From contig OZ219752.1 of the NCBI GenBank assembly GCA_964291315.2, positions 299,968-363,967 on the forward strand: DNA of 64,000 bases, given 5' to 3'. This document shows positions 3 to 15,604 of the stretch, in pieces (within the stretch, counting starts at the first letter, position 1; every line of letters starts with the position of its first letter). The notes beneath the pieces are model-generated. The model saw only the letters and a program-made list of their open reading frames with translations, was not told the DNA's origin and made no database searches. The DNA is from Candidatus Poribacteria bacterium (lineage in GTDB: Bacteria; Poribacteria; WGA-4E; WGA-3G). The position numbers were made by a program, and so were the translations under genes.

Positions 3-1619
3 GCGCTCGTCCATGGATCGCAACTTCAGCTACTTGAAAGAAGTCAACAGACCCAGATTTTAAACCGGTTTGACGAGCTTTGTGCCCAATTTGACATCGT
101 AGAGGAAAAGAAAATTGCCCAATTTCGCAGATTGATCCGTTGTGGGATTGCCTATCATCATGCGGGGATGCTGCCCACACTCAAAGAGGTTGTAGAACGC
201 TTGTTCACCTCTGGATTGATCCAACTCCTCTTTACCACTGAAACTTTTGCTGTCGGTATTAATATGCCTGCCTGTTCTGTCGTCTTTGATAGTCTAAAAA
301 AATATGATGGAATCGGATTTCGACCCCTCAAAGCACGGGAATATCACCAAATGTCCGGACGTGCCGGTAGACGCGGCATTGACCCTATCGGCTATGTCTA
401 TGCCCAGATTGTACCCGAATATGCTGATTCAGAAGAAATTCGAAGCGTTGTTGCTGATAAGATAGAGCCTATCGAAAGCCAATTTAATCTCTCCTATTCC
501 AGTATTCTCAATCTTTATCAGAGATATGGAGAGGGGATTTACGATATCTATACGATGAGTCTGAGCAATCACCAAAACTACGTGCGTGTCGCAAAACTCA
601 ACAAAGAAATTGAGACCAAAACAGAGAAGCTCCAAGGGCTACCTGAGCCTGAGTGTATCCATGAGGGGATCAATGGAATCAAACAGATTGGGCAACATTA
701 TCGCCAAAATAGAGAGCGTGAAAAGGAACGTCAACGTTTATACGCAGAGCGGGCGCAAATCAGATCCGAAATTCGAAAAAAGAGGCGGAAAAAAGCGCAA
801 AATAAAAGATTAAAGGCAGTTCAACGAAAGATAAACCTGTTGCAGCGAAGAGCGGAGCCGAGCCTTTGTGATGCCTGTCAACACTTAAACACATGCACTA
901 CAAGATATAAAGCCATCCGGAAAGAGGAGGTGCGCCTCCAAAAACTCAAAGAGAGAACGACACGCATTGAAAACAACCCGATGGCGCAAATAATAGCTCG
1001 TCTCAGAGTACTTAAGGAATTAGGTTACATTGAAGCCGAAGCGCTGCTGCCGAGGGGCAGTACGGCTGCACACATTTCTGGATACGAGCTCGAATTAACC
1101 CAGCTCCTCCTTAACGGATTCTTTGAGAGACTGACGGAAGATGAAATTAACTGCCTCATAGTCGCAATCGTCTCTGAACCGCGTAAAGATGGGTATTTTA
1201 AGCCCCTCAAGGATCCACACTTGTTGGAGGTCCTCTATGCCGTCAACTCCGAAATTTCGTTCATCCAATCTTTAGAGAATAAACACGGCGTGACAGAAAT
1301 CACCCCTCTCTTGGAACTACGGTTTTGCACGGCGATGCTGGCCTGGAGCCGAGGGTGTCGCTTCGACATGCTTGAAAAGTATGCGCGCGTGGATGCTGGC
1401 GATTTTGTCCGAACCTTTCGGCTCGTCATCGATCAACTCCGTCAAATGTGCCGTGCAATGAGTGGACACACCGCTCTAGTTGATAAGCTCAACCGATGTA
1501 TTGAAAAAATCAATAGGGACGTTGTCGACGCGGAACGCCAATTACGGATTACACAAGAAAATCTTGATGAAGCAGACAGTAAGGCTGCTGAAGAGACGTT
1601 ACGAAAAAAGGCATTGTAA
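3..1619 (+). CDS. Ski2/HelY-like DEAD/DEAH-box RNA helicase, 5' end outside the window
   Basis: Frame is open from base 3. Motifs GIAYHHAGMLP, TETFAVGINMPA, QMSGRAGRRGID and SQF, plus a DSHCT-like C-terminus (AWSRG...GDFVR...INRDVV). Confidence 0.9.
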   Translation, partial: ALVHGSQLQLLERSQQTQILNRFDELCAQFDIVEEKKIAQFRRLIRCGIAYHHAGMLPTLKEVVERLFTSGLIQLLFTTETFAVGINMPACSVVFDSLKKYDGIGFRPLKAREYHQMSGRAGRRGIDPIGYVYAQIVPEYADSEEIRSVVADKIEPIESQFNLSYSSILNLYQRYGEGIYDIYTMSLSNHQNYVRVAKLNKEIETKTEKLQGLPEPECIHEGINGIKQIGQHYRQNREREKERQRLYAERAQIRSEIRKKRRKKAQNKRLKAVQRKINLLQRRAEPSLCDACQHLNTCTTRYKAIRKEEVRLQKLKERTTRIENNPMAQIIARLRVLKELGYIEAEALLPRGSTAAHISGYELELTQLLLNGFFERLTEDEINCLIVAIVSEPRKDGYFKPLKDPHLLEVLYAVNSEISFIQSLENKHGVTEITPLLELRFCTAMLAWSRGCRFDMLEKYARVDAGDFVRTFRLVIDQLRQMCRAMSGHTALVDKLNRCIEKINRDVVDAERQLRITQENLDEADSKAAEETLRKKAL

Positions 1620-1955
1620 TGAAAAACGAATTGTATTACAATAGAGCACTTGCACACGGTGCTGTTTTATGCTCAAAACCGCGTAAGTCCGAAACGATCG
1701 GATAGCCAAGCATATCCTTCGTTTGATTGAACGGGTGATTACAGTGAGCAGAGAGGCGATGTTGATTGTTAGTCAATTGCCGGCATTTAGTAAGAAGAGG
1801 CATCGTCGGGTTTCCAGCTCACAATCTACCAGCAGCTTGCAAGGTGTATAGAAAATGTTACACTTTCCGCGAAATTGTTTTTTTACAACAAAAAAAAAGA
1901 ATGCGGATTAACCCGCTTATTCACTGTGTTTTCTGCCCATAACACCTCTACTCCT

Positions 1956-1977
1956 AATGTTACACCAGTGTAACATT
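1956..1977. promoter_or_regulatory. Perfect inverted repeat AATGTTACAC-CA-GTGTAACATT, candidate operator
   Basis: 10-bp arms with a 2-bp spacer. A further AATGTTACAC half-site lies at about 1854-1863, upstream of the paralog array. Confidence 0.45.
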
Positions 1978-2107
1978 TTTACACGGAGAATTCATTACGC
2001 CGGTCTAAGGATTTCTGCTAACATGTCACGTCAGCGATCGGATTTGCTTCTCGCCATAGGTTGACCTATAAAAGTATTACATATTATACATAAAACAGTG
2101 TTTTTCC

Positions 2108-2136
2108 TTGACAGAAACTATATTATCTCATAAATT
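2108..2136 (+). promoter_or_regulatory. Candidate sigma-70 promoter of the array
   Basis: TTGACA-N17-TAAATT, about 135 nt before the first paralog. Confidence 0.5.
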
Positions 2137-2270
2137 CTATTGTAGAGACACGCTGCGGTTTGCCTCGGTCTCCTGCTTCCGAGAGAACACGAAGAAGCGC
2201 ACCGCTAGAGGCATTGTGAGTCTCACACATTAGCAATAAAGTCTAGTGGAGAAAAAAGGATAATAACATA

Positions 2271-2975
2271 GTGTTGAAGCAACTGTTATCAGACAAGCGT
2301 ATTTTATGCGGTTTTATCTGTGTGTTGGTGCTGGTTGTTGGCGGCGTGGTATATGAGAGATCGGTGAAACAGCAAGCCCGCCGCGATATCCGACGCACTG
2401 AAAAGATCGTCAAAGAGAGGCAACGTCAGGAGACCGGCTCTCAGCCCACAGAGAGTGGTCACTACCATTCGGATGGAACATATCACACAGGCTCACATGA
2501 AGCACCGGCCGGCACGACTGCCCCGTCAGAAGAGGGTAAGAAGAGCGGTATAGCTCCTGAGCGTGTGATATGGACAGGCAAGCCCCTGCGTGAGGTGTCC
2601 GCACCCGATCCGCTGAGTCCCGCGGAGCGCAAAGCACGCAATGCGAAGATCCAAGCACTCAATATACAGATACAGAAACTCAGAGGCGTAACAGAAGCAA
2701 AAACCGTCGAGTGTGATGAACGCATTAAGGCATCTTCTAAAATCCTCAGGGAAAGGGAAGCAATCTCGGCAGAGCTGGACGCATTCCTCGTTGCAGAGGA
2801 TCGCACTGCGGAAGAACAAGCACGCTTTGATGCACTTTTAAAACAGTATTTAGAATTGCGCAACCTCTTTCATGAAAAGCACGCCATCGCTAAGCAAACG
2901 CTAGAAGAGAAGCGCACACTTCTTGAAAATCTCTATAGACTTGAAACGGATCGCGATGCGTTACGACGCCGATAA
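2271..2975 (+). CDS. Membrane-anchored His-motif/coiled-coil protein, paralog 1 of 7 (234 aa)
   Basis: N-terminal hydrophobic helix, GHYHSDGTYHTGSHE, conserved WTGKPLREVSAPDPL linker and a heptad-rich C-terminus. Confidence 0.85.
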   Translation: MLKQLLSDKRILCGFICVLVLVVGGVVYERSVKQQARRDIRRTEKIVKERQRQETGSQPTESGHYHSDGTYHTGSHEAPAGTTAPSEEGKKSGIAPERVIWTGKPLREVSAPDPLSPAERKARNAKIQALNIQIQKLRGVTEAKTVECDERIKASSKILREREAISAELDAFLVAEDRTAEEQARFDALLKQYLELRNLFHEKHAIAKQTLEEKRTLLENLYRLETDRDALRRR

Positions 2976-2987
2976 GGAGGCATGTTG

Positions 2988-3035
2988 ATGAAGCACAGAC
3001 GTATTGTAGTTGCAATAATATTAGGTTTGATGTAA
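2988..3035 (+). pseudogene. 15-codon stub MKHRRIVVAIILGLM*, a truncated signal-peptide-like remnant; also at 3793-3840, 4598-4645, 5401-5448 and 10892-10939
   Basis: Follows TAAGGAGG with the same 12-nt stop-to-ATG spacing as the 6206 gene, and aligns without gaps to its start MNRKYTVTVFLCGLF. Confidence 0.6.
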
Positions 3036-3075
3036 TGTAAAGTTTACGGACTTAACTGAAAAGGAGAAGGATGTA

Positions 3076-3780
3076 ATGTTGAAGCAACTTTTATCGGACA
3101 AGCGTATTTTAGGTGGGCTTATCTGTGTGTTGGTGTTGGTTGTTGCCGGCGTGGTATATGAGAGATCGGTGAAACGACAAGCCCGCCGGGATATACAGCG
3201 CCCTGAAAAGATCGTCAAAGAGAGGCAACCTCGGGAGACCGGCTCTCAGTCCGCAGAGAGTGGTCACTACCATTCGGATGGCACATATCACACAGGCTCA
3301 CATGAAGCACCGGCCGACACGACTGCCCCGTCAGCAGAGGGTAAGAGGAGCCGTATAGCTCCGGGAGATGTGATATGGATGGGCAAGCCGCTGCGTGAAG
3401 TGTCAGCACCCGATCCGCTGAGTCCCGCAGAGCGCAACGCACGCAATGCGAAAATACAAACACTCAATACACAGATACAGAAACTCAAACGCATAACAGA
3501 AGCACAGACCAACGAGTGGTTGGAACACCTTAAAAAATATCCTAAAATCAGCCGAGAAAAAAGGGCAATCTTGGCTGAGAAGGATAAACTCCTCGCTGTA
3601 GAAGATTGGACTGCGGAAGAACGAGCCCGCTATGACGCACTTTCAAAAAGGTTTGAAGAATTGAACGATCTAAGTGACAAAAGACGCGCTATCTCTGAGC
3701 AAATGCAGGAAGAGAACCTCCAGCTTCTTGAAAAGCGCGATGCCCTTGAAGCGGAACTGAGTGCCTTACGGCGCCGATAA
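3076..3780 (+). CDS. Paralog 2 of 7 (234 aa)
   Basis: Same architecture; AAGGAG RBS upstream. Confidence 0.85.
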   Translation: MLKQLLSDKRILGGLICVLVLVVAGVVYERSVKRQARRDIQRPEKIVKERQPRETGSQSAESGHYHSDGTYHTGSHEAPADTTAPSAEGKRSRIAPGDVIWMGKPLREVSAPDPLSPAERNARNAKIQTLNTQIQKLKRITEAQTNEWLEHLKKYPKISREKRAILAEKDKLLAVEDWTAEERARYDALSKRFEELNDLSDKRRAISEQMQEENLQLLEKRDALEAELSALRRR

Positions 3781-3880
3781 GGAGGGATGTTGATGAAACA
3801 CAGACGTATTGTAGTTGAAATAATATTAGGTTTGATGTAATGTAGCATTTACTAACTTAACTAAAAAGGAGAAGGATATA

Positions 3881-4585
3881 ATGTTAAAGCAATTGTTATC
3901 GGATAAGCGTATTTTATGCGGTTTTATCTGTGCTTTGGTGCTGGTTGTTACGTCGCTGGTGTATCAGGGATCTGTGAAACGGCAAGTCCACCGAGATATA
4001 CAACGCACTGAAAAGATCGTCAAAGAGAGGCAACGTCAGGAGACCGGCTCTCAGCCCACAGAGAATGGGCACTACCATTCGGATGGCACATATCACACAG
4101 GCTCACATGAAACACCGTCTGGCATGACTGCCCCGTCAAAAGAGGTTGAGAGGAGCGGTATAGCTCCTGAGAGTGTGATATGGACAGGCAAGCCGCTGCG
4201 TGAAGTGTCAGCACCCGATCCGCTGAGTCCTGCAGAGCGCAAGGCACGCAATGCGAAAATACAAGCACTCAATACTGAGATAAAGCAACTTGTGCGCGCA
4301 ACGCGGGCACACATGCACAAGTATAATGAACAAGTTGACAAATATCCCAAAATCAGGCAAGAAATAAAGGCAATCTCGACAGAGTTGGACACTTTCCCCG
4401 CTGCAGAGGATCGCACTACGGAACAACAGACACGCTATGACACCCTTTTAAAACGGTATTTAGAATTGGAGAACCTTGCTGACGAAGTTCTCACTATCGC
4501 AAATGAAATGCGGGAAGAGAGCCGCCAGCTTCTTGAAAATCTCGATCCACTTGAAACGGAGCTGAGTGCGTTACGGCGCCAATAA
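3881..4585 (+). CDS. Paralog 3 of 7 (234 aa)
   Basis: Same architecture. Confidence 0.85.
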   Translation: MLKQLLSDKRILCGFICALVLVVTSLVYQGSVKRQVHRDIQRTEKIVKERQRQETGSQPTENGHYHSDGTYHTGSHETPSGMTAPSKEVERSGIAPESVIWTGKPLREVSAPDPLSPAERKARNAKIQALNTEIKQLVRATRAHMHKYNEQVDKYPKIRQEIKAISTELDTFPAAEDRTTEQQTRYDTLLKRYLELENLADEVLTIANEMREESRQLLENLDPLETELSALRRQ

Positions 4586-4683
4586 GGAGGGATGTTGATG
4601 AAACACAGCCGTATTGTAGTTGAAATAATATTAGGTTTGATGTAGTCTATACTTCAGGAACTGAAAAGTAGGAGCATAACAAA

Positions 4684-5388
4684 GTGTTGAAGCGTCTATT
4701 ATCAAACAAGCGGATTTTGGGTGTGGTTGTCTGTGCTTTAGTGCTGGTTGTTGCCGGCGTGGTATATGAGAGATCGGTGAAACAGCAAGCCCAACGCGAT
4801 ATCCGACGCACTGAAAAGATCGTCAAAGAGAGGCAACGTCAGGAGACCGGCTCTCAGTCCGCAGAGAGTGGTCACTACCATTCGGATGGCACATATCACA
4901 CAGGCTCACATGAAGCACCGGCTGACACGACTGCCCCGTCAGAAGAGGTTGAGAAGAGCGGTATAGCTCCTGAGAGTGTGATATGGACGGGGAAGCCGTT
5001 GCGTGAGATTTCGGCACCCGATCCGCTGAGTCCCGCAGAGCGCAACGCACGCAATGCGAAAATACAAACACTCAATACACAGATACAGAAACTCAAACGC
5101 ATAACAGAAGCACAGACCAACGAGTGGTTGGAACACCTTAAAAAATATCCTAAAATCAGCCGAGAAAAAAAGGCAATCTCGGCAGAGCTGCGTGCACTCC
5201 GCGCTGCAGAGGATTGGACTGTGGAAGAACGAGCTCGCTATGATGCACTTTCAAAAAGGTTTGAAGAATTGGGCGATCTAATTGACAAAATTTTCTCCAC
5301 CTCTGATCGGATGCAGGAAGAGAACCTCCAGCTTCTTGAAAAGCGCGATGCCCTTGAAGCGGAGCGCGATGCGCTGCGGCGCCGATAA
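4684..5388 (+). CDS. Paralog 4 of 7 (234 aa)
   Basis: Same architecture; GTG/TTG start after a second spacer type. Confidence 0.85.
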   Translation: MLKRLLSNKRILGVVVCALVLVVAGVVYERSVKQQAQRDIRRTEKIVKERQRQETGSQSAESGHYHSDGTYHTGSHEAPADTTAPSEEVEKSGIAPESVIWTGKPLREISAPDPLSPAERNARNAKIQTLNTQIQKLKRITEAQTNEWLEHLKKYPKISREKKAISAELRALRAAEDWTVEERARYDALSKRFEELGDLIDKIFSTSDRMQEENLQLLEKRDALEAERDALRRR

Positions 5389-5488
5389 GGCGGAATGTTG
5401 ATGAAGCACAGACGTATTGTAGTTGAAATAATATTAGGTTTGATGTAATGTAGAGTTTACGCACTTAACTAAAAAGGAGAAGGATATA

Positions 5489-6193
5489 ATGTTAAAGCAA
5501 CTGTTATCAGACAAGCGTATTTTATGCGGTTTTATCTGTGTGTTGGTGTTGGTTGTTGCCGGCGTGGTATATGAGAGATCGGTGAAACAGCAAGCCCAAC
5601 GCGATATCCGACGCACTGAAAAGATCGTCAAAGAGAGGCAACATCGGGAGACTGGCTCTCAGTCCGCAGAGAATGGGCACTACCATTCGGATGGAACCTA
5701 TCATACAGGATCACATGAAGCACCGGCAGACACGACTGCGCCCTCAGGAGATGGTAAGAGGAGCAGTATAGCTCCTGAGCGTGTGATATGGACAGGGAAG
5801 CCGCTGCGTGAAGTGTCAGCACCCGATCCGCTGACTCCCGCAGAGCGCAAAGCACGCAATGCGAAAATACAAGCACTCAATACACAGATACAGAAACTCA
5901 GACGCATAACACAAGCAAAAACCGTCGAGTGTGATGAACGCATTAACGAAACTGATAAAACCCTCAGCGAAATCGATACAATCTCGGCAGAGCTGCGTGC
6001 ACTCCACATTACAGAAGATTCGACTGCGGAAGAACAAGCACGCCATGACGCACTTTTAAAACGGTATTTAGAACTGCACAACCTCGCCCGCGAAAGGAAC
6101 GTCATCGCTAAGCAAACGCTAGAAGAGAAGCGCGCACTTCTTGAAAATCTCGATGCTCTTGAAGCGAAGCTTAGCGCTTTACGTGGTCGATAA
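5489..6193 (+). CDS. Paralog 5 of 7 (234 aa), directly upstream of the large Cys/His protein
   Basis: Same architecture; its stop codon overlaps the TAAGGAGG RBS of the next gene. Confidence 0.85.
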   Translation: MLKQLLSDKRILCGFICVLVLVVAGVVYERSVKQQAQRDIRRTEKIVKERQHRETGSQSAENGHYHSDGTYHTGSHEAPADTTAPSGDGKRSSIAPERVIWTGKPLREVSAPDPLTPAERKARNAKIQALNTQIQKLRRITQAKTVECDERINETDKTLSEIDTISAELRALHITEDSTAEEQARHDALLKRYLELHNLARERNVIAKQTLEEKRALLENLDALEAKLSALRGR

Positions 6194-6205
6194 GGAGGAA
6201 TATCG

Positions 6206-9200
6206 ATGAACCGAAAATATACTGTAACCGTTTTTTTATGCGGTCTTTTTTGCCTCCACACAGTGGCGCTCGTGTTAGCTAACAATGAAGAGCGAACCCA
6301 ATCGCAGAAAGATGCGGAAAGTAAATATGCCCAAGCACTTGATGGTTATCAAGACGCTCAAATTGCTAGGGGGAATGTTAAGATTGATGTTAGAGCTTTA
6401 GAAATAACTAGAGGATTGCTACAGAAGGAGATAAGTGATGAAAAGTTGGCAGCGTACGGTACGGTGCTCAACACGGCGGTGGCCTTGCTCACTGGGGCGT
6501 CTGCGGCGACCATAGCAACGAGAACGGCCGCAGCAATTGTCATTGGCAAGAGTGTTTCTGATATGGTCCGGACAATCCGTGACGCGCTGAAGGAGAATAA
6601 GAAAGCCACGCTTCATAAGTTGAAGCAAGGAATGTATAACTTGGAGACAGAGCTAATAGAAAGGACGAAGGTGGTTCAAGATGAGGCAGCTGATGCTAAC
6701 AGCGAGTTAGATGCTTGGAAAGCCGTAGAGCCCGGTGCGACGTATGACAAAAAGCCACTTGATGAACGGTATATTGATGTCGAAACAATGCATCCGGACT
6801 ACACTCGGACGTTGCCGGATCCGCCGACGTATCGTTCCGACACGACGGAAACGATTGCGTGCCCTGCCTGTCGTGATCAGGTCAAGCCGCCATATTTGAC
6901 AAAGATAGTGGTTTTATCCCCTGGTCTGATTATGGGTATAGAGAAAACGGTCAAAAGGTATCGGGGTCATGAGGTCACGTGTGCAGAGACGCGTCACTCG
7001 ACAGGCAAAGCGTGTGATGGTGAGTATTATAGTTGCTTGTCTCCGTATTCGAGTGCTTCCATAGTTTGCCCGAATGATGCGGATCACCGAGTTGTTGGCA
7101 CGTGTGGTGAGCTCAAGGGCTCTAGGTTTAAGAAGCATGAGTATGCGAAGGGTTCGCCTGGGAATCATGGCAAGAAATTGAAGACTTGTGGTTCTATTGG
7201 TATGAGGTGGGAGCAATCCGATGGAACGGTCACACGGCAGGTATGTAAGATTAAGGTTTTTCCATGTGCGCCGGCGCATGGTCGGCATAATTGGGATCTG
7301 GTGTCTTTTAAGAAGCTATCACTGAATTTGGGTTCGGGCAGTAATTATATTTGTGCCAATTCCTCGTGTTCCATGAGCGGTAGCAGTTCATCGGGCGACG
7401 ATGAAGACGACGAGGACGATACCGCTGACAATACCCAGGGCGGTTCCGAATACGGTATGGGTATGGATGTGCGTTCGATAAACGGTAGCGGTTCGCCGAA
7501 CGTCCCTCATCGAGAACAGGTTGCTCGAGCGTTAGCGTCTCGGGCGTGGAGAGCTTTACATTGGAACCACTCCGTCTCGCTAGGTATCTCTGCTGCACCG
7601 GAGCAGACTACCTCGCCGCTGAAGTTATCGTATGAGCATCAGCGGGTGTGTTCAGAGGGGCATAAGTATTGGCTCTGTGATGCATCACAGAGGTTGGGGC
7701 ATGCCCAATTGGTGTGTAGTCGTTCGGCGTGCGGGCAGGCGTTCACGCAGTGTTCTAACCACAGCTCAGCGTGTGTCGGGGGTTGGCATACCGGGGGTGC
7801 CGGTGATTTTTCCGAGACAGCAGATGCCTTGGCGGTGGTGTGTGGTAACCCGCACCGCAGGGATGGTGCGTGTGCATATGGGGGTCAGACCCCCTCGGTG
7901 AATGCTCATCGGACGACGTGTCTGGCAGGTCATACATATTGGTCGTGTAATGCGCAGGCGGTCCTAACGCATAGCAAACATACAGCCCGGCTTGTTACGT
8001 GTGGCAACTCGAACGCTGGGGAAGGAGCGTGTTCACAGGGGCGTCAAGCCGTCTCGTTGAATGCTCATCAGACGACGTGTCTGGCGGGTCATACATATTG
8101 GTCGTGTAATCCCGTGGCAAAACAGACGCATTCCTCTCACACCGCCTCATCCGGCGAAGGTACGGATGCTCCTAATACGGTTCCTGCTCGGGCTCCTGCA
8201 CCTACTCCTGCGCGCCCTCCGACGGGAGATGGTGCGTGTGGCAACTCGAATGCTGGTGCGGGTGCGTGTTCTGTGGGAGGCAAGGCGCCGTCAGCGAATG
8301 CTCATCGGACGACGTGTCTGGCGGGTCATACGTATTGGTCGTGTAATGCGCAGGCGGTTATAACGCATAGCCGACATACTGCGCCGCTTGTTGCGTGTGG
8401 CAACTCGAATGCTGGTGCGGGTGCGTGTTCACAGGGAGGCCGAGTCGTCTCGTTGAATGCTCATCAGGTTCGGTGTCTGGCGGGTCATACATATTGGTCG
8501 TGTAATCCCGTGGCAAAACAGACGCATTCCTCTCATACCGCCTCATCCGGCGAAAGTGCAAGTCTTTCTAAGATATCTTCTATGCTACTCCTGACGGGAG
8601 ATGGTGCGTGTGGCAACTCGAATGCTGGGGATGGTGCGTGTTCTGCGGGAGGCAGGGCGCCGTCAGCGAATGCTCATCAGATTCGGTGTTTAGCAGGTCA
8701 TACGTATTGGTCGTGTAATGCGCAGGCGGTTGTAATACATAGCCGACATACTGCGCCGCTTGTTGCGTGTGGCAACTCGAATGCTGGTGCGGGTGCGTGT
8801 TCTGCCGGAGGTCAAGCCGTCTCGTTGAATGCTCATCAGGCGCGATGTCTGGCGGGTCATACGTATTGGTCGTGTAATCCGTTAGCAAAACAGACGCATT
8901 CCTCTCATACCGCCTCATCCGGCGAAGGTACGGATGCTCCTCATCTGGCTCCTGTGGCACCCGATCCTAAACCGTCTCGGGCGCCTGCACCTACTCCTGC
9001 GCGCCCTCCGACGGGAGATGTTGCGTGTGGCAACTCGAATGCTGGTGCGGGAGCGTGTTCTGCGGGAGGCAGGGCGCCTTCAGCGAATGCTCATCAGGTT
9101 CGGTGTTTAGCGGGTCATACGTATTGGTCGTGTAATGCGCAGGCGGTTGTAAGGCATAGCCGACATACTGCGCCGCTTGTTGCGTGTGGCAACTCTAACG

Positions 9201-10084
9201 CTGGGGATGGTGCGTGTTCACAGGGAGGCCGAGCCGTCTCAGCCAATGCTCATCAGACGACTTGTTTAGCAGGTCATACATATTGGTCGTGTAATGCCCC
9301 ATCGGTCCTAATGCATAGCAAACATACTGCCCCCGTGGTCTGTCCTGCGGATAGTTGGACGGATTGTGGTGGCACGGTATCACATGCGGCGACGTGTCCA
9401 GCGGGTCATTCGTATTACACGTGTAACTCATCGTCAGCGTCGACACATTCAGCACATACCGCTCCGCCGCCGCCACCCCCTCCGCCGGAGGATCCGGTTG
9501 TTTGTCCTGCGGATAGTTGGACGGATTGTGGTGGCACGGTATCGCATGCGGCGACGTGTCCAGCGGGTCATTCGTATTACACGTGTAACTCATCATCAGC
9601 GTCGACGCATTCAGCACATACCGCTCCGCCGCCGCCACCCCCTCCGCCGGAGGATCCGGTTGTTTGTCCTGCGGATAGTTGGACGGATTGTGGTGGCACG
9701 GTATCACATGCGGCGACTTGTGCGGCGGGTCATTCGTATTATACGTGTAACTCATCGTCAGCGTCGACACATTCAGCACATACCGCTCCGCCGCCGCCAC
9801 CCCCTCCGCCGGAGGATCCGGTTGTTTGTCCTGCGGATAGTTGGACGGATTGTGGTGGAAAGGTGTCACATGCGGCGACTTGTGAAGCTGGGCACGAGTA
9901 TTATACATGTAACTCGTCAGCAGCTTCGGAACATTCGGAACATACCGCTCCCGAACCGGCCTGCCCTGCAAGTAGTTGGACAGATTGTAGTGGGACCGGA
10001 ACGGAGCATAAGGCGAAGTGTGGTAGAGGGCATACGTATTACACGTGCAATTCTTCGGCGCTTAAGAAACACTCCAAGCATTAG
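6206..10084 (+). CDS. Large secreted Cys/His-repeat protein (1292 aa) with an N-terminal coiled-coil/hydrophobic segment
   Basis: Sec-type signal ending LVLA, an Ala-rich hydrophobic stretch at about aa 82-114, and 14 H-x3-C-x2-GH-x-Y[WY]-x-C-x7-H units with Pro-rich linkers. Confidence 0.85.
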   Translation: MNRKYTVTVFLCGLFCLHTVALVLANNEERTQSQKDAESKYAQALDGYQDAQIARGNVKIDVRALEITRGLLQKEISDEKLAAYGTVLNTAVALLTGASAATIATRTAAAIVIGKSVSDMVRTIRDALKENKKATLHKLKQGMYNLETELIERTKVVQDEAADANSELDAWKAVEPGATYDKKPLDERYIDVETMHPDYTRTLPDPPTYRSDTTETIACPACRDQVKPPYLTKIVVLSPGLIMGIEKTVKRYRGHEVTCAETRHSTGKACDGEYYSCLSPYSSASIVCPNDADHRVVGTCGELKGSRFKKHEYAKGSPGNHGKKLKTCGSIGMRWEQSDGTVTRQVCKIKVFPCAPAHGRHNWDLVSFKKLSLNLGSGSNYICANSSCSMSGSSSSGDDEDDEDDTADNTQGGSEYGMGMDVRSINGSGSPNVPHREQVARALASRAWRALHWNHSVSLGISAAPEQTTSPLKLSYEHQRVCSEGHKYWLCDASQRLGHAQLVCSRSACGQAFTQCSNHSSACVGGWHTGGAGDFSETADALAVVCGNPHRRDGACAYGGQTPSVNAHRTTCLAGHTYWSCNAQAVLTHSKHTARLVTCGNSNAGEGACSQGRQAVSLNAHQTTCLAGHTYWSCNPVAKQTHSSHTASSGEGTDAPNTVPARAPAPTPARPPTGDGACGNSNAGAGACSVGGKAPSANAHRTTCLAGHTYWSCNAQAVITHSRHTAPLVACGNSNAGAGACSQGGRVVSLNAHQVRCLAGHTYWSCNPVAKQTHSSHTASSGESASLSKISSMLLLTGDGACGNSNAGDGACSAGGRAPSANAHQIRCLAGHTYWSCNAQAVVIHSRHTAPLVACGNSNAGAGACSAGGQAVSLNAHQARCLAGHTYWSCNPLAKQTHSSHTASSGEGTDAPHLAPVAPDPKPSRAPAPTPARPPTGDVACGNSNAGAGACSAGGRAPSANAHQVRCLAGHTYWSCNAQAVVRHSRHTAPLVACGNSNAGDGACSQGGRAVSANAHQTTCLAGHTYWSCNAPSVLMHSKHTAPVVCPADSWTDCGGTVSHAATCPAGHSYYTCNSSSASTHSAHTAPPPPPPPPEDPVVCPADSWTDCGGTVSHAATCPAGHSYYTCNSSSASTHSAHTAPPPPPPPPEDPVVCPADSWTDCGGTVSHAATCAAGHSYYTCNSSSASTHSAHTAPPPPPPPPEDPVVCPADSWTDCGGKVSHAATCEAGHEYYTCNSSAASEHSEHTAPEPACPASSWTDCSGTGTEHKAKCGRGHTYYTCNSSALKKHSKH
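7841..9334 (+). repeat. Eight ~53-aa type-A repeats (CGNSNAG..C...AH...CLAGHTYWSC...H..H), arranged as four alternating pairs
   Basis: Visible in DNA and protein; 159-nt period within pairs (8237 to 8396). Confidence 0.9.
9335..10081 (+). repeat. Four 54-aa type-B repeats (CPADSWTDC...H...C.AGHSYYTC...; first three followed by P8) plus one diverged terminal unit
   Basis: 162-nt period (9341, 9503, 9665, 9827). Confidence 0.9.
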
Positions 10085-10097
10085 GCGATTTCTTTGA

Positions 10098-10131
10098 GAA
10101 CAAAGCCTTGTTTTTCAGTAGGGCTTTGTTC
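10098..10131 (+). terminator. Stem-loop after the large gene (terminator or mRNA-stability hairpin)
   Basis: GAACAAAGCC...GGCTTTGTTC; no clear U-tract on the + strand. Confidence 0.45.
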
Positions 10132-10174
10132 AAAAGGAGGCAAAGCGAGTGCCTAATATTAAGGGGATGACGTA

Positions 10175-10879
10175 ATGTTGAGGCATCTATTATCAAACAA
10201 GCGGATTTTGGGTGTGGTTGTCTGTGCTTTAGTGCTGGTTGTTGCCGTCGTGGTGTATCAGGAAACGGTGAAACGGCAAGCTCACCGCGATATACAACGC
10301 ACTGAAAAGATCGTCAAAGAGAGGCAACGTCAGGAGACCGGCTCTCAGCCCACAGAGAATGGGCACTACCATTCGGATGGCACATATCACACAGGCTCAC
10401 ATGAAACACCGTCTGGCATGACTGCCCCGTCAAAAGAGGTTGAGAGGAGCGGTATAGCTCCTGAGAGTGTGATATGGACAGGCAAGCCGCTGCGTGAAGT
10501 GTCAGCACCCGATCCGCTGAGTCCTGCAGAGCGCAAGGCACGCAATGCGAAAATACAAGCACTCAATACTGAGATAAAGCAACTTGTGCGCGCAACGCGG
10601 GCACACATGCACAAGTATAATGAACAAGTTGACAAATATCCCAAAATCAGGCAAGAAATAAAGGCAATCTCGACAGAGTTGGACACTTTCCCCGCTGCAG
10701 AGGATCGCACTACGGAACAACAGACACGCTATGACACCCTTTTAAAACGGTATTTAGAATTGGAGAACCTTGCTGACGAAGTTCTCACTATCGCAAATGA
10801 AATGCGGGAAGAGAGCCGCCAGCTTCTTGAAAATCTCGATCCACTTGAAACGGAGCTGAGTGCGTTACGGCGCCAATAA
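10175..10879 (+). CDS. Paralog 6 of 7 (234 aa)
   Basis: Identical to paralog 3 from about codon 39 onward; N-terminus resembles paralog 4. Confidence 0.85.
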   Translation: MLRHLLSNKRILGVVVCALVLVVAVVVYQETVKRQAHRDIQRTEKIVKERQRQETGSQPTENGHYHSDGTYHTGSHETPSGMTAPSKEVERSGIAPESVIWTGKPLREVSAPDPLSPAERKARNAKIQALNTEIKQLVRATRAHMHKYNEQVDKYPKIRQEIKAISTELDTFPAAEDRTTEQQTRYDTLLKRYLELENLADEVLTIANEMREESRQLLENLDPLETELSALRRQ

Positions 10880-10977
10880 GGAGGGATGTTGATGAAACAC
10901 AGCCGTATTGTAGTTGAAATAATATTAGGTTTGATGTAGTCTATACTTCAGGAACTGAAAAGTAGGAGCATAACAAA

Positions 10978-11682
10978 GTGTTGAAGCGTCTATTATCAAA
11001 CAAGCGGATTTTGGGTGTGGTTGTCTGTGCTTTAGTGCTGGTTGTTGCCTTCGTGGTGTATCAGGGATCAATGAAACAGCAAGCTCACCGCGATATCCGA
11101 CGGACTGAAAAGAGCATCAAAGAGAGGCAACCTCGGGAGACTGGCTCTCGGTCTGCAGAGAGTGGGCACTACCATTCGGATGGGACATATCACACAGGCT
11201 CACATGAAACAACGTCTGGCACGACTGCTCCGTCAGCAGAGGGTAAGAGGAGCGGTATAGATCCTGAGCGTGTGATATGGACGGGCAAGCCGCTGCGTGA
11301 GGTGTCCGCACCCGATCCGCTGAGTCCAGCAGAGCGCAAGGCACGCAATGCGAAGATCCAAGCACTCAATACAGAGATCGAGCAACTCTGGCGCGTAATA
11401 GAGGCACAAACCGTCGAGTGGAATGAACACGTTGATAAATATCCTAAAATCAGCCGAGAAAGAAGAGCAATCTTAGCAGAGATGAACGCCCTCCCTACTG
11501 CACAGGATTGGACTGCGGAAGAACGAGCTCGCTACAACGCACTTTCAAAAAGGTTTGAAGAATTGGACGATCTAAGTGACAAAATTTTCTCTACCTCTGA
11601 TCGGATGCAGGAAGAGAATCGCCTGCTTCTTGAAAAGCGCGATGCCCTTGAAGCGGAGCTGAGTGCGTTACGGCGCCAATAA
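10978..11682 (+). CDS. Paralog 7 of 7 (234 aa)
   Basis: Same architecture; not followed by the stub. Confidence 0.85.
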   Translation: MLKRLLSNKRILGVVVCALVLVVAFVVYQGSMKQQAHRDIRRTEKSIKERQPRETGSRSAESGHYHSDGTYHTGSHETTSGTTAPSAEGKRSGIDPERVIWTGKPLREVSAPDPLSPAERKARNAKIQALNTEIEQLWRVIEAQTVEWNEHVDKYPKISRERRAILAEMNALPTAQDWTAEERARYNALSKRFEELDDLSDKIFSTSDRMQEENRLLLEKRDALEAELSALRRQ

Positions 11683-11739
11683 TAGTTGCGAACTACATCC
11701 TGATAACAACTATCTAATAACAAATTAAGGAGAATATCC

Positions 11740-12300
11740 ATGGCTAATCAAGACTTCAATCTCACTGGTGCTATTAAAGTACGACCGGCTGAAGAAACCG
11801 ATGCAGCTAATTTGCACATGTACTGCTTTCCTGAAAAAACCAAAAAGCAGGTCACTGAAGAGCTGAAAAACGATCTGAAAGCTGAAAATCAGACACACCG
11901 ACTTGTTGCTGAATCGAGTGGATACCCTATTGGGCAGGTCACTGTCAAGCAAAACGTTGGTAACCCCGAGATCGCACAGGTTGGGAATCTTGCTGTTGCA
12001 GGGCCTTTTCGGCACTTCGGGGTCGCTAATTACCTGATAGAGGCGGCTCAGGATGCTGCTGCAGCGAACGGTGTAAAATCGCTTCAAATAGAGTTATCCC
12101 CCTCCGATACGAGCGTTATTCAGCGGTATAAGGACTGGGGGTTCTCCGAAAAACCGGTCGTTGTTCTCGAAAAGATACTCGGTGAATCAGAACCGGAGGC
12201 AGAGGAAGGAATACAGGTAGAGGCAGACGACACCGACGAAGATGCCGAAGATGGAGCCTCAGCAGACGACGATGAACAACCCAGCCTGCTTGACTCCTAA
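11740..12300 (+). CDS. GNAT family N-acetyltransferase with an acidic tail
   Basis: VRPAEETD, LAVAGPFRHFGVANYLI (motif A) and YKDWGF. Confidence 0.8.
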   Translation: MANQDFNLTGAIKVRPAEETDAANLHMYCFPEKTKKQVTEELKNDLKAENQTHRLVAESSGYPIGQVTVKQNVGNPEIAQVGNLAVAGPFRHFGVANYLIEAAQDAAAANGVKSLQIELSPSDTSVIQRYKDWGFSEKPVVVLEKILGESEPEAEEGIQVEADDTDEDAEDGASADDDEQPSLLDS

Positions 12301-12315
12301 AAGGAGAATAGATTT

Positions 12316-13200
12316 ATGAACAGAATCTGGCTCCCGCTCCTCCTGGTCCTTTTTGTTGTCGGGTGCGGCACCCAAAACGAAAATCTTGCCAAGGGGAAGG
12401 AGTTGATTAAATCCGATAAACGCCGGAAAGAAGAACGGGCTGTTCGAGAATTTAAACTTGCACTCCAACAACCGATCGATAAGGCAGAATCACACTACCT
12501 GCTCGGACTTTACAATTCCCAGGAGTTTTACGAACCGAATACCGCCGACCGGGAAGCGGCCTCAATCGCTGCGCGCGGGGGACACATGTTCCTTGCATAT
12601 AAGGAAGAACCGCGTAAGTATCTTGAGATACTCATTTTTGAGACGCTTCGCGATGACGATCTAGATATTCAAAACGTCGCGCTCGATGCTTTAACGCGCA
12701 TATATAAAGAGGGCGATCGGAAACGACTGATCAGTCAACTTCAGAAGGCTATCAAATCCGGGGATAATCGCGATAGACACAGCGCACATTGGGTATTTGG
12801 ACACCTCGGTAAGGAAGACCCCGGGGTGCTTGTCCCCATTTTGTTAGAACTGCTTGATCACGGCCGCGAAGAAACCCGCTTGAATGCCGTTAAGGCCCTT
12901 GGCGACATCGGGAGCGAAGAAGCAATTCCTGCCCTCGCTGCCCTGATTGACTCCGGCGCTGCTAGATGGAAACGCGACCGGGAGAAACCTGAAGTTCGTC
13001 AACTCGCTGTAGAAGCCCTCGGCAAAATCGGTGGTGCTGCTGTCCCAGAACTCATCAAAATTGTAGAGAATAAGGGGTCTTCGCTACGTGTCGACGCTAT
13101 TCGCGCCTTAGCAACCCTCGGAGATGAAAAAGTCGTTGTGCCGCTCTTAGATGTTTTGAAAGAGCAGAGCAGCCGGGATGTGAGTATCCCCCTTAATTGA
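12316..13200 (+). CDS. HEAT/PBS-lyase repeat lipoprotein
   Basis: Lipobox-like VVGC; repeats RLNAVKALGDIG, RQLAVEALGKIG and RVDAIRALATLG. Confidence 0.8.
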   Translation: MNRIWLPLLLVLFVVGCGTQNENLAKGKELIKSDKRRKEERAVREFKLALQQPIDKAESHYLLGLYNSQEFYEPNTADREAASIAARGGHMFLAYKEEPRKYLEILIFETLRDDDLDIQNVALDALTRIYKEGDRKRLISQLQKAIKSGDNRDRHSAHWVFGHLGKEDPGVLVPILLELLDHGREETRLNAVKALGDIGSEEAIPALAALIDSGAARWKRDREKPEVRQLAVEALGKIGGAAVPELIKIVENKGSSLRVDAIRALATLGDEKVVVPLLDVLKEQSSRDVSIPLN

Positions 13201-13277
13201 AGGGACAGGCGTTATGGCACGCCCCGGGGCGCCTAATACCTTGATGAAACCTGCTATTCAATGGAAAGGACTGAAGT

Positions 13278-14729
13278 ATGGTAGGGAAAACAACACGCAT
13301 GAAACAAATCTGCCGCTTCGCGGTTATTGTGCCCTTTTTCGCGCTTGTACTCGGACTGGTACTCGGATGTGACAACCGGTATTCCGATGAACGTTTGAAA
13401 ATGGAGGTACAGCAGTTAGACAGTGACCTTATGAACCGTTGGGCAACAAGTGGTGTTATCGTTTTAAACACGACCCCCAACGGGCCGGCGAATAAGGCAC
13501 AACTTGAACCTGGAGAACTGATCTCCTATGTCATTGCGGAATATCCGGTCCAAAGCACAGACGACTTCAACAGGGCGCTCAAAAAAGCACTTGAGGGTGA
13601 TAACAACCTCATTCTCTATTTGAAAGGCAAGCCACCTATCCGTATTGCCCTTCGGAGACAAGGCGATAAGGTAGGCCTCAGCACTGAAGGAACGGGAACG
13701 GTGCGAGTCAAGGAAATTCAAGCTGGGACTCCTGCTGCAAATGCGGATATTCAGGTAGGCGATGTCGTTGAAAAAATTGTTGATGAGCGAAATATTTATG
13801 ACCTTGCGGATTACAAAAAGACCTTGGGGAAACTCTCCAAACACAAAATTACCTTCCGAACATCTGAATTAATAGGCGTGAAGATCGCTGCTGTGACGGC
13901 CCTTGGTGATTTGGGGGATGCCCGGGCGATTCAGCCGTTAATGGATCTCTTCAAAAATAGTGCAGAGTTCTCGGTTCGCAAAGCCGCCATCATCAGCCTG
14001 CAACGGCTCGTTGAATTAAGCATGCTGAACAACCTTTTCCACGAATTTCAACGGGCGAATGTGAATCAGCTCCCCGCTGATAGTATGCATGTGAGCCAAT
14101 TGGAATCTGCTGCTATCCTGGGCTTACTCACTGTTGATAGAGCCGGAAATACTGCTACACTCAAAGAGCCTTTCGGAACACAATTCAGACACAGGTCAGA
14201 AACACTCTATCGAGAAATCAACGGGGGACAGCTTGCTGAGATCGCGCAAGAATACATTCAGATGCATGTAGAGCCTGAACAAGAGATTCGGCGTGCGTGT
14301 CTCGCGATACTCGGAGTCCTCAAACCGGTTTCGGCAATTGAGGATCTCGTTGTTGTCCTCGAAAGCCCGTCAGAAATTCCCGGCATCCGTTTCCAAGCGG
14401 GACTTGCCCTCAGTCAGATTGGTGAGCCTGCTGTTGATGCGCTCATCGCGGTTTTTGAAAATAAAGATACCAGCACAAAAGATATCGCGGCTTCCGCCCT
14501 CGGCAGGATCGGTGGAACTAAGGCGCGAGATCGATTGATTGATGAGCTTGAGACAACTCATCAACCTGCGATTCGACTAACGCTTGTTGACGCGATTTCC
14601 AAAATCGGTGATGCCCCGTCTATACGGGCACTTGAACGCCAACGTGAACGATACCAACAGAATGCTGATCCTGGCCTGCGTATCTTTCTAGATGAGGTTT
14701 TTAGAAACTTAGCCAGTGGATCCATGTAA
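13278..14729 (+). CDS. PDZ-domain plus HEAT-repeat lipoprotein
   Basis: VLGC lipobox, two PDZ-like segments (GPANKAQLEPGELI, GTPAANADIQVGDVV) and C-terminal HEAT repeats. Confidence 0.75.
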   Translation: MVGKTTRMKQICRFAVIVPFFALVLGLVLGCDNRYSDERLKMEVQQLDSDLMNRWATSGVIVLNTTPNGPANKAQLEPGELISYVIAEYPVQSTDDFNRALKKALEGDNNLILYLKGKPPIRIALRRQGDKVGLSTEGTGTVRVKEIQAGTPAANADIQVGDVVEKIVDERNIYDLADYKKTLGKLSKHKITFRTSELIGVKIAAVTALGDLGDARAIQPLMDLFKNSAEFSVRKAAIISLQRLVELSMLNNLFHEFQRANVNQLPADSMHVSQLESAAILGLLTVDRAGNTATLKEPFGTQFRHRSETLYREINGGQLAEIAQEYIQMHVEPEQEIRRACLAILGVLKPVSAIEDLVVVLESPSEIPGIRFQAGLALSQIGEPAVDALIAVFENKDTSTKDIAASALGRIGGTKARDRLIDELETTHQPAIRLTLVDAISKIGDAPSIRALERQRERYQQNADPGLRIFLDEVFRNLASGSM

Positions 14730-14758
14730 ACCAATGCAGTCCTCACACAACGTGGACT

Positions 14759-15604
14759 GTGCTATGCATGAAAATTGGACTTATTTCAGATTTACACACT
14801 GACGTTACGTCTTTCAACAAAGCGCTTATCCCGTATCTCATTGATGCAGTAAATGCAGCGGAACTGGATGTTTTGGTGATGGCGGGCGATCTTGCGCGAC
14901 ATCTCGTCCAACTTTCTGAAACGCTCAACCTTTTTCACCTTGCAAATTTAGCGTGTGAAAAATTGTTTGTGCCCGGAAACCATGACATTTGGGCTATTGA
15001 GACGCCCGATGTGACAAGCGAGCAGAAATGTGACATTATTTCGAAACTCTGTTATGAGTGTGGGTTTCATCCGCTCATGCGTGAACCCTTCATCACTGAG
15101 AAGATCGCTTTCTGTGGAACTATCGGCTGGTACGATTACAGTTTCGCCCCCGAGGGTTATACCTTCTCGGATACACAATATGCGGAAAAGGAACTCATGG
15201 GGGCTGTTTGGAATGATAAACGATACGCGAGATGGTTGGATACCGATCGCGTTGTCGCTCAAGGTTTTGAAAATGCCCTTGAGGCGCAAATTGCTGATGT
15301 CCGAAACAGGGTAGCTTCTATCGTTGTAGTTACCCACCATGTCCCGTTTCGTGAGTGCATCCAATACCGGGGCGAATTACCTTGGGATTTCTTCCGCGCC
15401 TTCATGGGCAGTGAAGGTCTCGGGGCTTGCTGCTTGCGAGAGCCTCGCGTCACGCACACACTTTTCGGGCATAGCCACCGCTCGGTTGATATGCAACTTC
15501 GTAACGTTCGTGCTATCTGTGCCCCTATCGGCTACCTCTATCAAGAACCTAAGCTTGGATTGAAAGCATACGCCTCACAATGTTTGACCTGTTTCAACGT
15601 ATAA
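14759..15604 (+). CDS. Calcineurin-like metallophosphoesterase
   Basis: SDLH, AGD, PGNHD, THH and GHSH motifs. Confidence 0.9.
   Translation: MLCMKIGLISDLHTDVTSFNKALIPYLIDAVNAAELDVLVMAGDLARHLVQLSETLNLFHLANLACEKLFVPGNHDIWAIETPDVTSEQKCDIISKLCYECGFHPLMREPFITEKIAFCGTIGWYDYSFAPEGYTFSDTQYAEKELMGAVWNDKRYARWLDTDRVVAQGFENALEAQIADVRNRVASIVVVTHHVPFRECIQYRGELPWDFFRAFMGSEGLGACCLREPRVTHTLFGHSHRSVDMQLRNVRAICAPIGYLYQEPKLGLKAYASQCLTCFNV

Follow-up and report, generated by a model that had tools for sequence, protein, structure and literature searches.

A repeated gene-start fragment in the spacers of a Poribacteria gene array, probably a relic of the start of a partner gene

Within the first 12 kb of a 64,000-nucleotide stretch of a Candidatus Poribacteria genome (GenBank assembly GCA_964291315.2, contig OZ219752.1; the window in the following), seven 234-codon (705-nt) paralogs, A1 to A7, flank a single 1292-codon gene, B, and five of the spacers behind A genes hold a 15-codon open reading frame, which we call the stub. 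We regard these stubs as probable junction relics of the start of a B-family gene. A preliminary description of this DNA had presented the stub as the 5' end of a lost partner gene. This idea is borne out by the position of the stub, the order of A and B in related genomes and the N-termini of the B family, which together make an origin from B the most likely reading of the sequences, but not by the alignment with the B gene resident in the array, which alone does not show such an origin. The scar itself is of an ordinary kind in genomes, here found in an uncharacterised gene family. It is tidy and datable and would record the way in which an uncharacterised family of Poribacteria surface proteins came to form a tandem array, with A and the giant Cys/His-rich B as an old two-gene module. 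For annotators it means that the 15-codon frames should be called neither genes nor signal peptides. A full-text literature search for this Poribacteria array found nothing.

Organization of the array and of its spacers

The A units follow each other with a repeat period of 803-805 nt and the first run has the order A-stub-A-stub-A-stub-A-stub-A-B, with the intact B behind the last copy, A5 (Table 1). A6 begins 90 nt past the end of B. A consensus scan detected no promoter-like or terminator-like site inside any spacer, and since a promoter-like site is present upstream of A1, the whole array reads as one putative operon. The gene upstream of the array encodes a Ski2-type helicase (DSHCT and Helicase_C domains), and the region 3' of the array (11740-15604) contains genes for a GNAT acetyltransferase, two HEAT-repeat proteins, one of them with a PDZ domain, and a calcineurin-like phosphoesterase, which have no obvious link to the array. 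Just past the stop codon of B (10097-10134) there is an inverted repeat, GAACAAAGCC...GGCTTTGTTC, which has no T-run and was not flagged in the terminator scan.

Table 1. Coordinates of the array genes, stubs and flanking elements within the window.
Feature	Position	Strand	Description
Candidate promoter	2108-2136	+	Best sigma-70-like match upstream of A1, TTGACA-17-TAAATT; consensus match only
A1	2271-2975	+	234-aa paralog; N-terminal membrane helix, His-rich motif GHYHSDGTYHTGSHE, C-terminal helical hairpin
Spacer 1	2976-3075	+	SD GGAGG at 2976-2980, stub ORF at 2988-3035, variable linker, SD of A2
Stub 1	2988-3035	+	15-codon ORF, MKHRRIVVAIILGLM, then stop
A2	3076-3780	+	Paralog ORF
Stub 2	3793-3840	+	MKHRRIVVEIILGLM, then stop
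A3	3881-4585	+	Paralog ORF
Stub 3	4598-4645	+	MKHSRIVVEIILGLM, TAG stop; second spacer type after it
A4	4684-5388	+	Paralog ORF, GTG start
Stub 4	5401-5448	+	MKHRRIVVEIILGLM, then stop; SD weakened to GGCGG
A5	5489-6193	+	Last A ahead of the intact B
B	6206-10084	+	1292 aa; signal-peptide-like N-terminus, Cys/His-rich repeats; translation begins MNRKYTVTVFLCGLF
A6	10175-10879	+	3' 591 nt identical to A3
Stub 6	10892-10939	+	MKHSRIVVEIILGLM, same as stub 3, then stop; inside the 761-bp perfect repeat
A7	10978-11682	+	Final copy; then TAATAG and unrelated sequence, without SD and without stub

The layout of the spacers had been described correctly before, as a reading of the sequence confirmed. 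The stop codons of A1 to A4 and A6 run into TAAGGAGG (TAAGGCGG after A4), so that GGAGG follows the stops of A1, A2, A3, A5 and A6 and GGCGG that of A4. In all five spacers an ATG exactly 12 nt past the stop opens the 15-codon frame MKH(R/S)RIVV(A/E)IILGLM, in which the reported change from A to E is present in four of the five stubs. The real junction between A5 and B has the same arrangement, i.e., the stop of A5, TAAGGAGG and, after 12 nt, the ATG of B at 6206 (position +13). Over the stop codon and the 12 nt after it, 12/15 nt are identical between the stub junctions and the A5-B junction, followed by a shared ATGAA. A second in-frame ATG is located 6 nt 5' of the stub ATG (ATGTTGATG), only 1 nt after the GGAGG. 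Length, frame and stop position of the stub are constant across the copies. Its end lies 37-40 nt ahead of the start of the next A, which has an SD of its own. The 5' type of this next A and the right half of the spacer vary together. SD sites are in use in this genome, a 4-mer core preceding 28 of 45 ORF starts.

The stub and B each have their ATG in the reading frame of the A gene before them, at a distance of exactly 12 nt, a placement that is probably without meaning. Read-through of TAA at the A-stub junctions (e.g., 2973-2990; for B, 6191-6208) would add GGMLMKHRRIVV.IILGLM to A. Read-through of A into the stub was set aside; the other genes of the window end normally, the stub is followed by a second in-frame stop, and TAA-G is a strong context for termination.

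The stub sequence is confined to the array. A pattern search and a six-frame search did not recover it elsewhere in the window or in any of six related loci, and only the five stubs matched when both were searched in six frames for MKH[RSK]R, RRIVV, KHRRI and IILGL. The five stubs are repeats of one unit and their mutual agreement is not independent evidence. The number of independent copies is moreover four rather than five, because a 761-bp perfect direct repeat (3995-4755 = 10289-11049) includes stubs 3 and 6. This repeat extends over the 3' 591 nt of A3/A6, the entire spacer with its stub and 72 nt at the start of A4/A7 (to codon 24), whereas the other units of the array differ by 10-30%. 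Its origin is either a duplication or gene conversion across B that happened very recently, or an artefact of metagenome assembly.

The AF2 model of A1 (pLDDT 76.8; helices 2-55, 117-173 and 180-233) starts with a membrane helix, which is followed by a small His-rich hairpin and, modelled with confidence, a helical hairpin at the C-terminus that is the variable, mosaic part of the paralogs. B is a secreted-type protein, and the AF2 model of its residues 1-330 has low confidence (pLDDT 59) and shows long helices whose hydrophobic tip is rich in Gly/Ala. Its Cys/His repeats have periods of 159 and 162 nt and are built from many copies of the modules CGNSNAG.GAC...NAH...CLAGHTYWSCN and CPADSWTDCGG.VSHAATC.AGH.YYTCN, with Pro-rich linkers between them. 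Neither model had a PDB match at E<=0.001, the entries listed being generic helical hairpins for A and generic helical proteins for B, and for this reason the earlier designation of A as a binder is unsupported. No family for A or B was found in Pfam and NCBIfam, apart from one sub-threshold coiled-coil match, and the ESM Atlas gave no usable match for A.

Resemblance of the stub to B and its relatives

The preliminary description had aligned the stub without gaps to the N-terminus of the resident B. The identities it named, M1, V7, G13 and L14, are correct (4/15) and the ungapped BLOSUM62 score is 19. The expectation that this alignment is better than that of other signal peptides did not hold up at the protein level: a shuffle that kept the basic and the hydrophobic part of B separate gave P=0.086 (8.6% of 100,000 trials), and 4 of 32 signal-like N-termini behind SD-like motifs, taken from the window and six related loci, reached at least the same score. 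The match to the resident B thereby comes close to being no better than that of shuffled signal peptides. On the DNA level, codons 2-15 agree in register at 21/42 nt, a value reached by 0/35 signal-like (maximum 20), 0/208 SD-preceded and 1/110 broad controls, in control sets that are small and drawn only from the window and the six loci. We consider this in-register match between the two sequences suggestive but not decisive. In the register of the family, which requires a one-codon gap, about 15/39 nt agree (hand count), and over the full length of the stub 25/48 nt are identical to the 5' end of B. When the stub DNA was aligned locally and with gaps to the 5' ends of A, B and controls, A and B were both unremarkable, and reading the translations in every frame revealed no B-like coding past the stop of the stub.

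The comparison with other members of the B family is more informative. A HMMER search with residues 1-520 of B against 1.84 billion representatives yielded 16 matches and a profile search for the B family in a 5.8-billion set yielded six; all relatives of B with a named source organism are Poribacteria. Among the 12 B-family N-termini that were read, P0027 starts with MKHRHILL (MKHRHILLTFFLLCV) and P0016 with MKHRNLWL (MKHRNLWLTIFLLSA). P0027, a protein of 507 aa, is 36% identical to B (E=1e-89) and colinear with it from residue 2/3. Scored in register with the stub, P0027 reaches 29 and P0016 24, with six identities out of 15 in each case, and neither score is reached by any of 32 SD-preceded or 107 broader signal-like N-termini, for which the maximum is 23. 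The difference between the B family and these controls corresponds to Mann-Whitney P=0.004 and 2e-5, values that are overstated because the family members are related to each other. The opening MKH itself occurs in 0/209 and 1/2332 control starts. A large-protein homolog that starts like the stub, as had been predicted, therefore exists as far as the first residues are concerned, since P0027 and P0016 both begin with MKHR; the complete MKHRRIVVAIILGLM start was not found, and none of the B-family matches in the databases opens with the entire 15-mer.

The order of the two genes in other genomes is in line with this. While a scan of a genome collection with the seven paralogs of the window resulted in 11 pattern matches and no relatives, a repeat scan with two database relatives as additional queries led to six loci in Candidatus Poribacteria MAGs (L001, L003, L004 and L006 among them). 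Judging by these relatives, the window most likely stems from a poribacterial genome of the sponge-symbiont type. In L003 an A homolog (1991-2704) is followed by a B homolog from 2701, and in L004 an A homolog ending at 10882 is followed by an 800-aa B homolog from 10879, both with an ATGA overlap. L006 has two A-like genes and then a 618-aa B-like gene at 11164. A thus stands directly before B at three Poribacteria loci, and in L001 a B-like fragment lies 1.7 kb downstream of an A homolog. Next to the A and B homologs, L001 (2600-3607), L004 (9075-9962) and L006 (10004-11148) have extra small genes for membrane-anchored proteins whose His-rich motif is related (HESGHWHGDEWH, DHYHSDGTYHHGQH), separated by gaps of 4-15 nt and without stubs, which indicates that the module has several A-like members in other Poribacteria.

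Decay, constraint and other readings of the stub

The preliminary description had also taken the change from A to E as a sign of decaying signal function, and for the peptide this is plausible. The stub peptide consists of an n-region (KHRR) and an h-region of 10 residues followed by the stop. As it has no c-region or cleavage site and no passenger, and as E is placed inside the h-region of four of the five stubs, it cannot work as a signal peptide. Eight B-family N-termini from the databases are all free of acidic residues at positions 6-20, and six of them have T at position 9, which would fit an order of changes from T to A to E. The stub is probably translated into a 15-residue peptide, a presumption based on the good SD kept at a spacing of 7 nt.

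The DNA, on the other hand, does not look decayed. The SD and the stub (60 nt) form the most conserved block of the unit with a mean pairwise identity of 94%, compared to 91% in the A core (codons 31-130), 75% in the adjoining 3' part of A and 72% in the next 20 nt of the spacer. Only 6/60 columns of this block are variable as opposed to 18/58 four-fold sites of all A (Fisher P=0.006), 10/38 four-fold sites of the A core (P=0.049) and 21/35 columns of the remaining spacer, and the conserved island is cut off sharply at the stop of the stub. The highest conservation within the unit is not what one expects of a neutral relic, and this counts against our favoured reading and for the view that the stub, of whatever origin, is now a selected functional element, for example a ribosome-retaining mini-ORF on a long polycistronic mRNA (a relay that guards against polarity or decay), a small hydrophobic peptide or a site acting at the DNA or RNA level. 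The equal length, frame and stop position in all copies, the strong SD and the spacers free of terminators would suit such an element as well, but on balance we hold it to be unlikely. One of the three changes within the ORF is synonymous and the other two, R to S and A to E, are radical, which is unlike purifying selection on the peptide and leaves no sign of selection on it. A pure ribosome relay needs no conservation of sequence, one of the SDs is weakened (GGCGG) and the stub is absent from every related locus. The earlier suggestion that the stub couples translation along the array finds no support in RNA structure either: the folds of the spacers are not consistent (z -0.4 to -2.05, with differing structures), Rfam 15 has no match at E<=1 on either strand of 1600-12000, and in a comparison of native, shuffled and ribosome-covered stubs (sp67 being omitted as identical to sp34) the stub did not sequester the start of the next A, with opening energies within those of shuffled stubs in 4/4 distinct spacers, nor did covering it, as by a ribosome, consistently lower the opening energy of this start in 4/4 distinct spacers. 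Furthermore, homogenisation by gene conversion, which is clearly active as seen from the 761-bp perfect repeat, could mimic constraint and may be enough to account for the conservation of the SD and the stub. The sharp edge at the stop is left unexplained by our best model. It is doubtful to us that selection and not just homogenisation keeps the island of 75 nt formed by the last A codons, the SD and the 15-codon stub. If this were the case, the start of a signal peptide would have been recruited as a mini-ORF that is translated or as a nucleic-acid element, and would punctuate a diversifying array of membrane-anchored coiled-coil cassettes in a sponge symbiont, e.g., as a ribosome relay for the operon of about 9.5 kb or as a fixed anchor in cassette shuffling. 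The scar is better conserved than synonymous sites of the neighbouring genes, and if this reflects selection, a dead gene start would have been reused as an operon-internal element.

It is also conceivable that the stub has nothing to do with B and is either a chance hydrophobic ORF behind an SD that belongs to the 3' context of A, or the decayed 5' end of an A gene. At the protein level the stub is not significantly similar to the resident B, and the pattern of basic and then hydrophobic residues is common to all these N-termini. An A origin can moreover point to ATGTTG[ATG]AAGCA..., which resembles the A start ATGTTGAAGCA... and is then followed by ...CGTATT..., to a spacer that reads ATGTTGATGAAGCAC where A genes start with (A/G)TGTTGAAGCAAC, to peptides that align by eye as ML-K...RI..I.L with two codon-multiple gaps, and to a local DNA score of 11 between the stub and the start of A2, which is reached by 7/110 signal-like controls. 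However, 6/7 A starts score 7-8 and fall within the bulk of the controls, the in-register score with A is about -5 (hand sum of BLOSUM62 values), and the two gaps needed here contrast with the ungapped, in-register match to the B family. A stub unrelated to B would leave its exact position at the place of the B start, with the same SD and spacing, as well as the MKHR match to P0027 and P0016 unaccounted for, and we judge this possibility very improbable.

Formation of the array and comparison with known systems

Given an origin as a junction relic of a B-family gene, the ancestral module would have been A directly followed by B, the order seen in the related genomes. A rearrangement could then have joined a point about 15 codons inside a B-type gene to a point about 40 nt upstream of A, either by a tandem duplication with one breakpoint within B or by loss of the body of B between two A genes and subsequent amplification. 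The observed layout is expected equally from a duplication breakpoint inside B and from deletion followed by amplification; the neighbourhood of B and A6 shows that the B-A adjacency needed for the deletion route exists. The captured piece would comprise the RBS, the start codon and roughly the first 12-15 codons of the signal peptide and would have been fixed at the junction of the 805-nt unit and copied along with it, while unequal crossing-over and gene conversion may have multiplied and homogenised the unit and left the intact B behind the last copy. As the stub has the family-typical MKHR and the resident B has MNRK, with the full-length DNA identity given above, the stub probably derives from a B that was ancestral or paralogous and not from the 5' end of the present one. 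For the second breakpoint, the 150 nt upstream of A1 were compared with the spacers and gave scores of 19-21, compared to shuffles that averaged 18-19 and reached at most 28-33, and the sequence upstream of A6 likewise did not score above shuffles. Since the region upstream of A1 aligns to the right part of the spacers only around the RBS, this breakpoint is not mapped.

Recombination may also have shaped the A genes themselves. Codons 31-130 are 89-93% identical, whereas codons 131-234 (e.g., 2661-2972) are variable and mosaic, with 68-91% nucleotide identity between pairs among A1 to A4 and patches in the C-terminal hairpin that are common to different pairs such as A2/A4 and A1/A5. This looks like a cassette-style diversification of a membrane-anchored coiled-coil protein. 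In addition, B shares TTTTATGCGGT at 6233-6251 with A1 at 2301-2320 and also with the 5' ends of A3 and A5 (11 nt exact, 16/19 overall). The match has a local score of 13-14 compared to a control mean of 7.25 (sd 1.6) and places FLCGLFC of the signal-peptide region of B against ILCGFIC of the membrane-helix region of A at a near-equal distance from the start; it could be due to gene conversion or to shared ancestry of the 5' ends of A and B.

Truncated gene fragments occur at the junctions of tandem duplications or deletions. The array resembles such cases in that every repeat junction carries the 5' part of the gene next to it, including RBS and start codon, that the intact gene follows the last copy and that the frame runs on for a few codons beyond the presumed junction. 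It differs from them in that the stub does not closely copy the resident B at its 5' end and is closer to distant family members, and in that it is better conserved than the synonymous sites of the flanking genes. Leader peptides and mini-ORFs for translational coupling are known from bacterial operons as well, e.g., attenuator and erm-type leaders. Like these, the stub is a short ORF with its own SD, located in a polycistronic spacer upstream of the next cistron, but unlike them it is accompanied neither by an alternative RNA structure reaching to the next start nor by a terminator or attenuator.

Among published systems, the lpl tandem paralogs of Staphylococcus aureus were the nearest counterpart found. 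According to the part of the lpl account drawn on here, the 3' part of one ORF, the intergenic stretch and the 5' part of the next ORF evolve together as a unit that recombines at conserved blocks (Tsuru and Kobayashi, 2008; PMC2568036), and nothing is said in this part about intergenic stubs that derive from another gene. The two systems differ in organism and in protein family, and the array described here is known from one genome. In both systems, however, tandem paralogs of a surface or secreted type are composed of conserved and variable blocks, and the 761-bp repeat spans a unit of just the kind described for lpl in that part of the account (PMC2568036).
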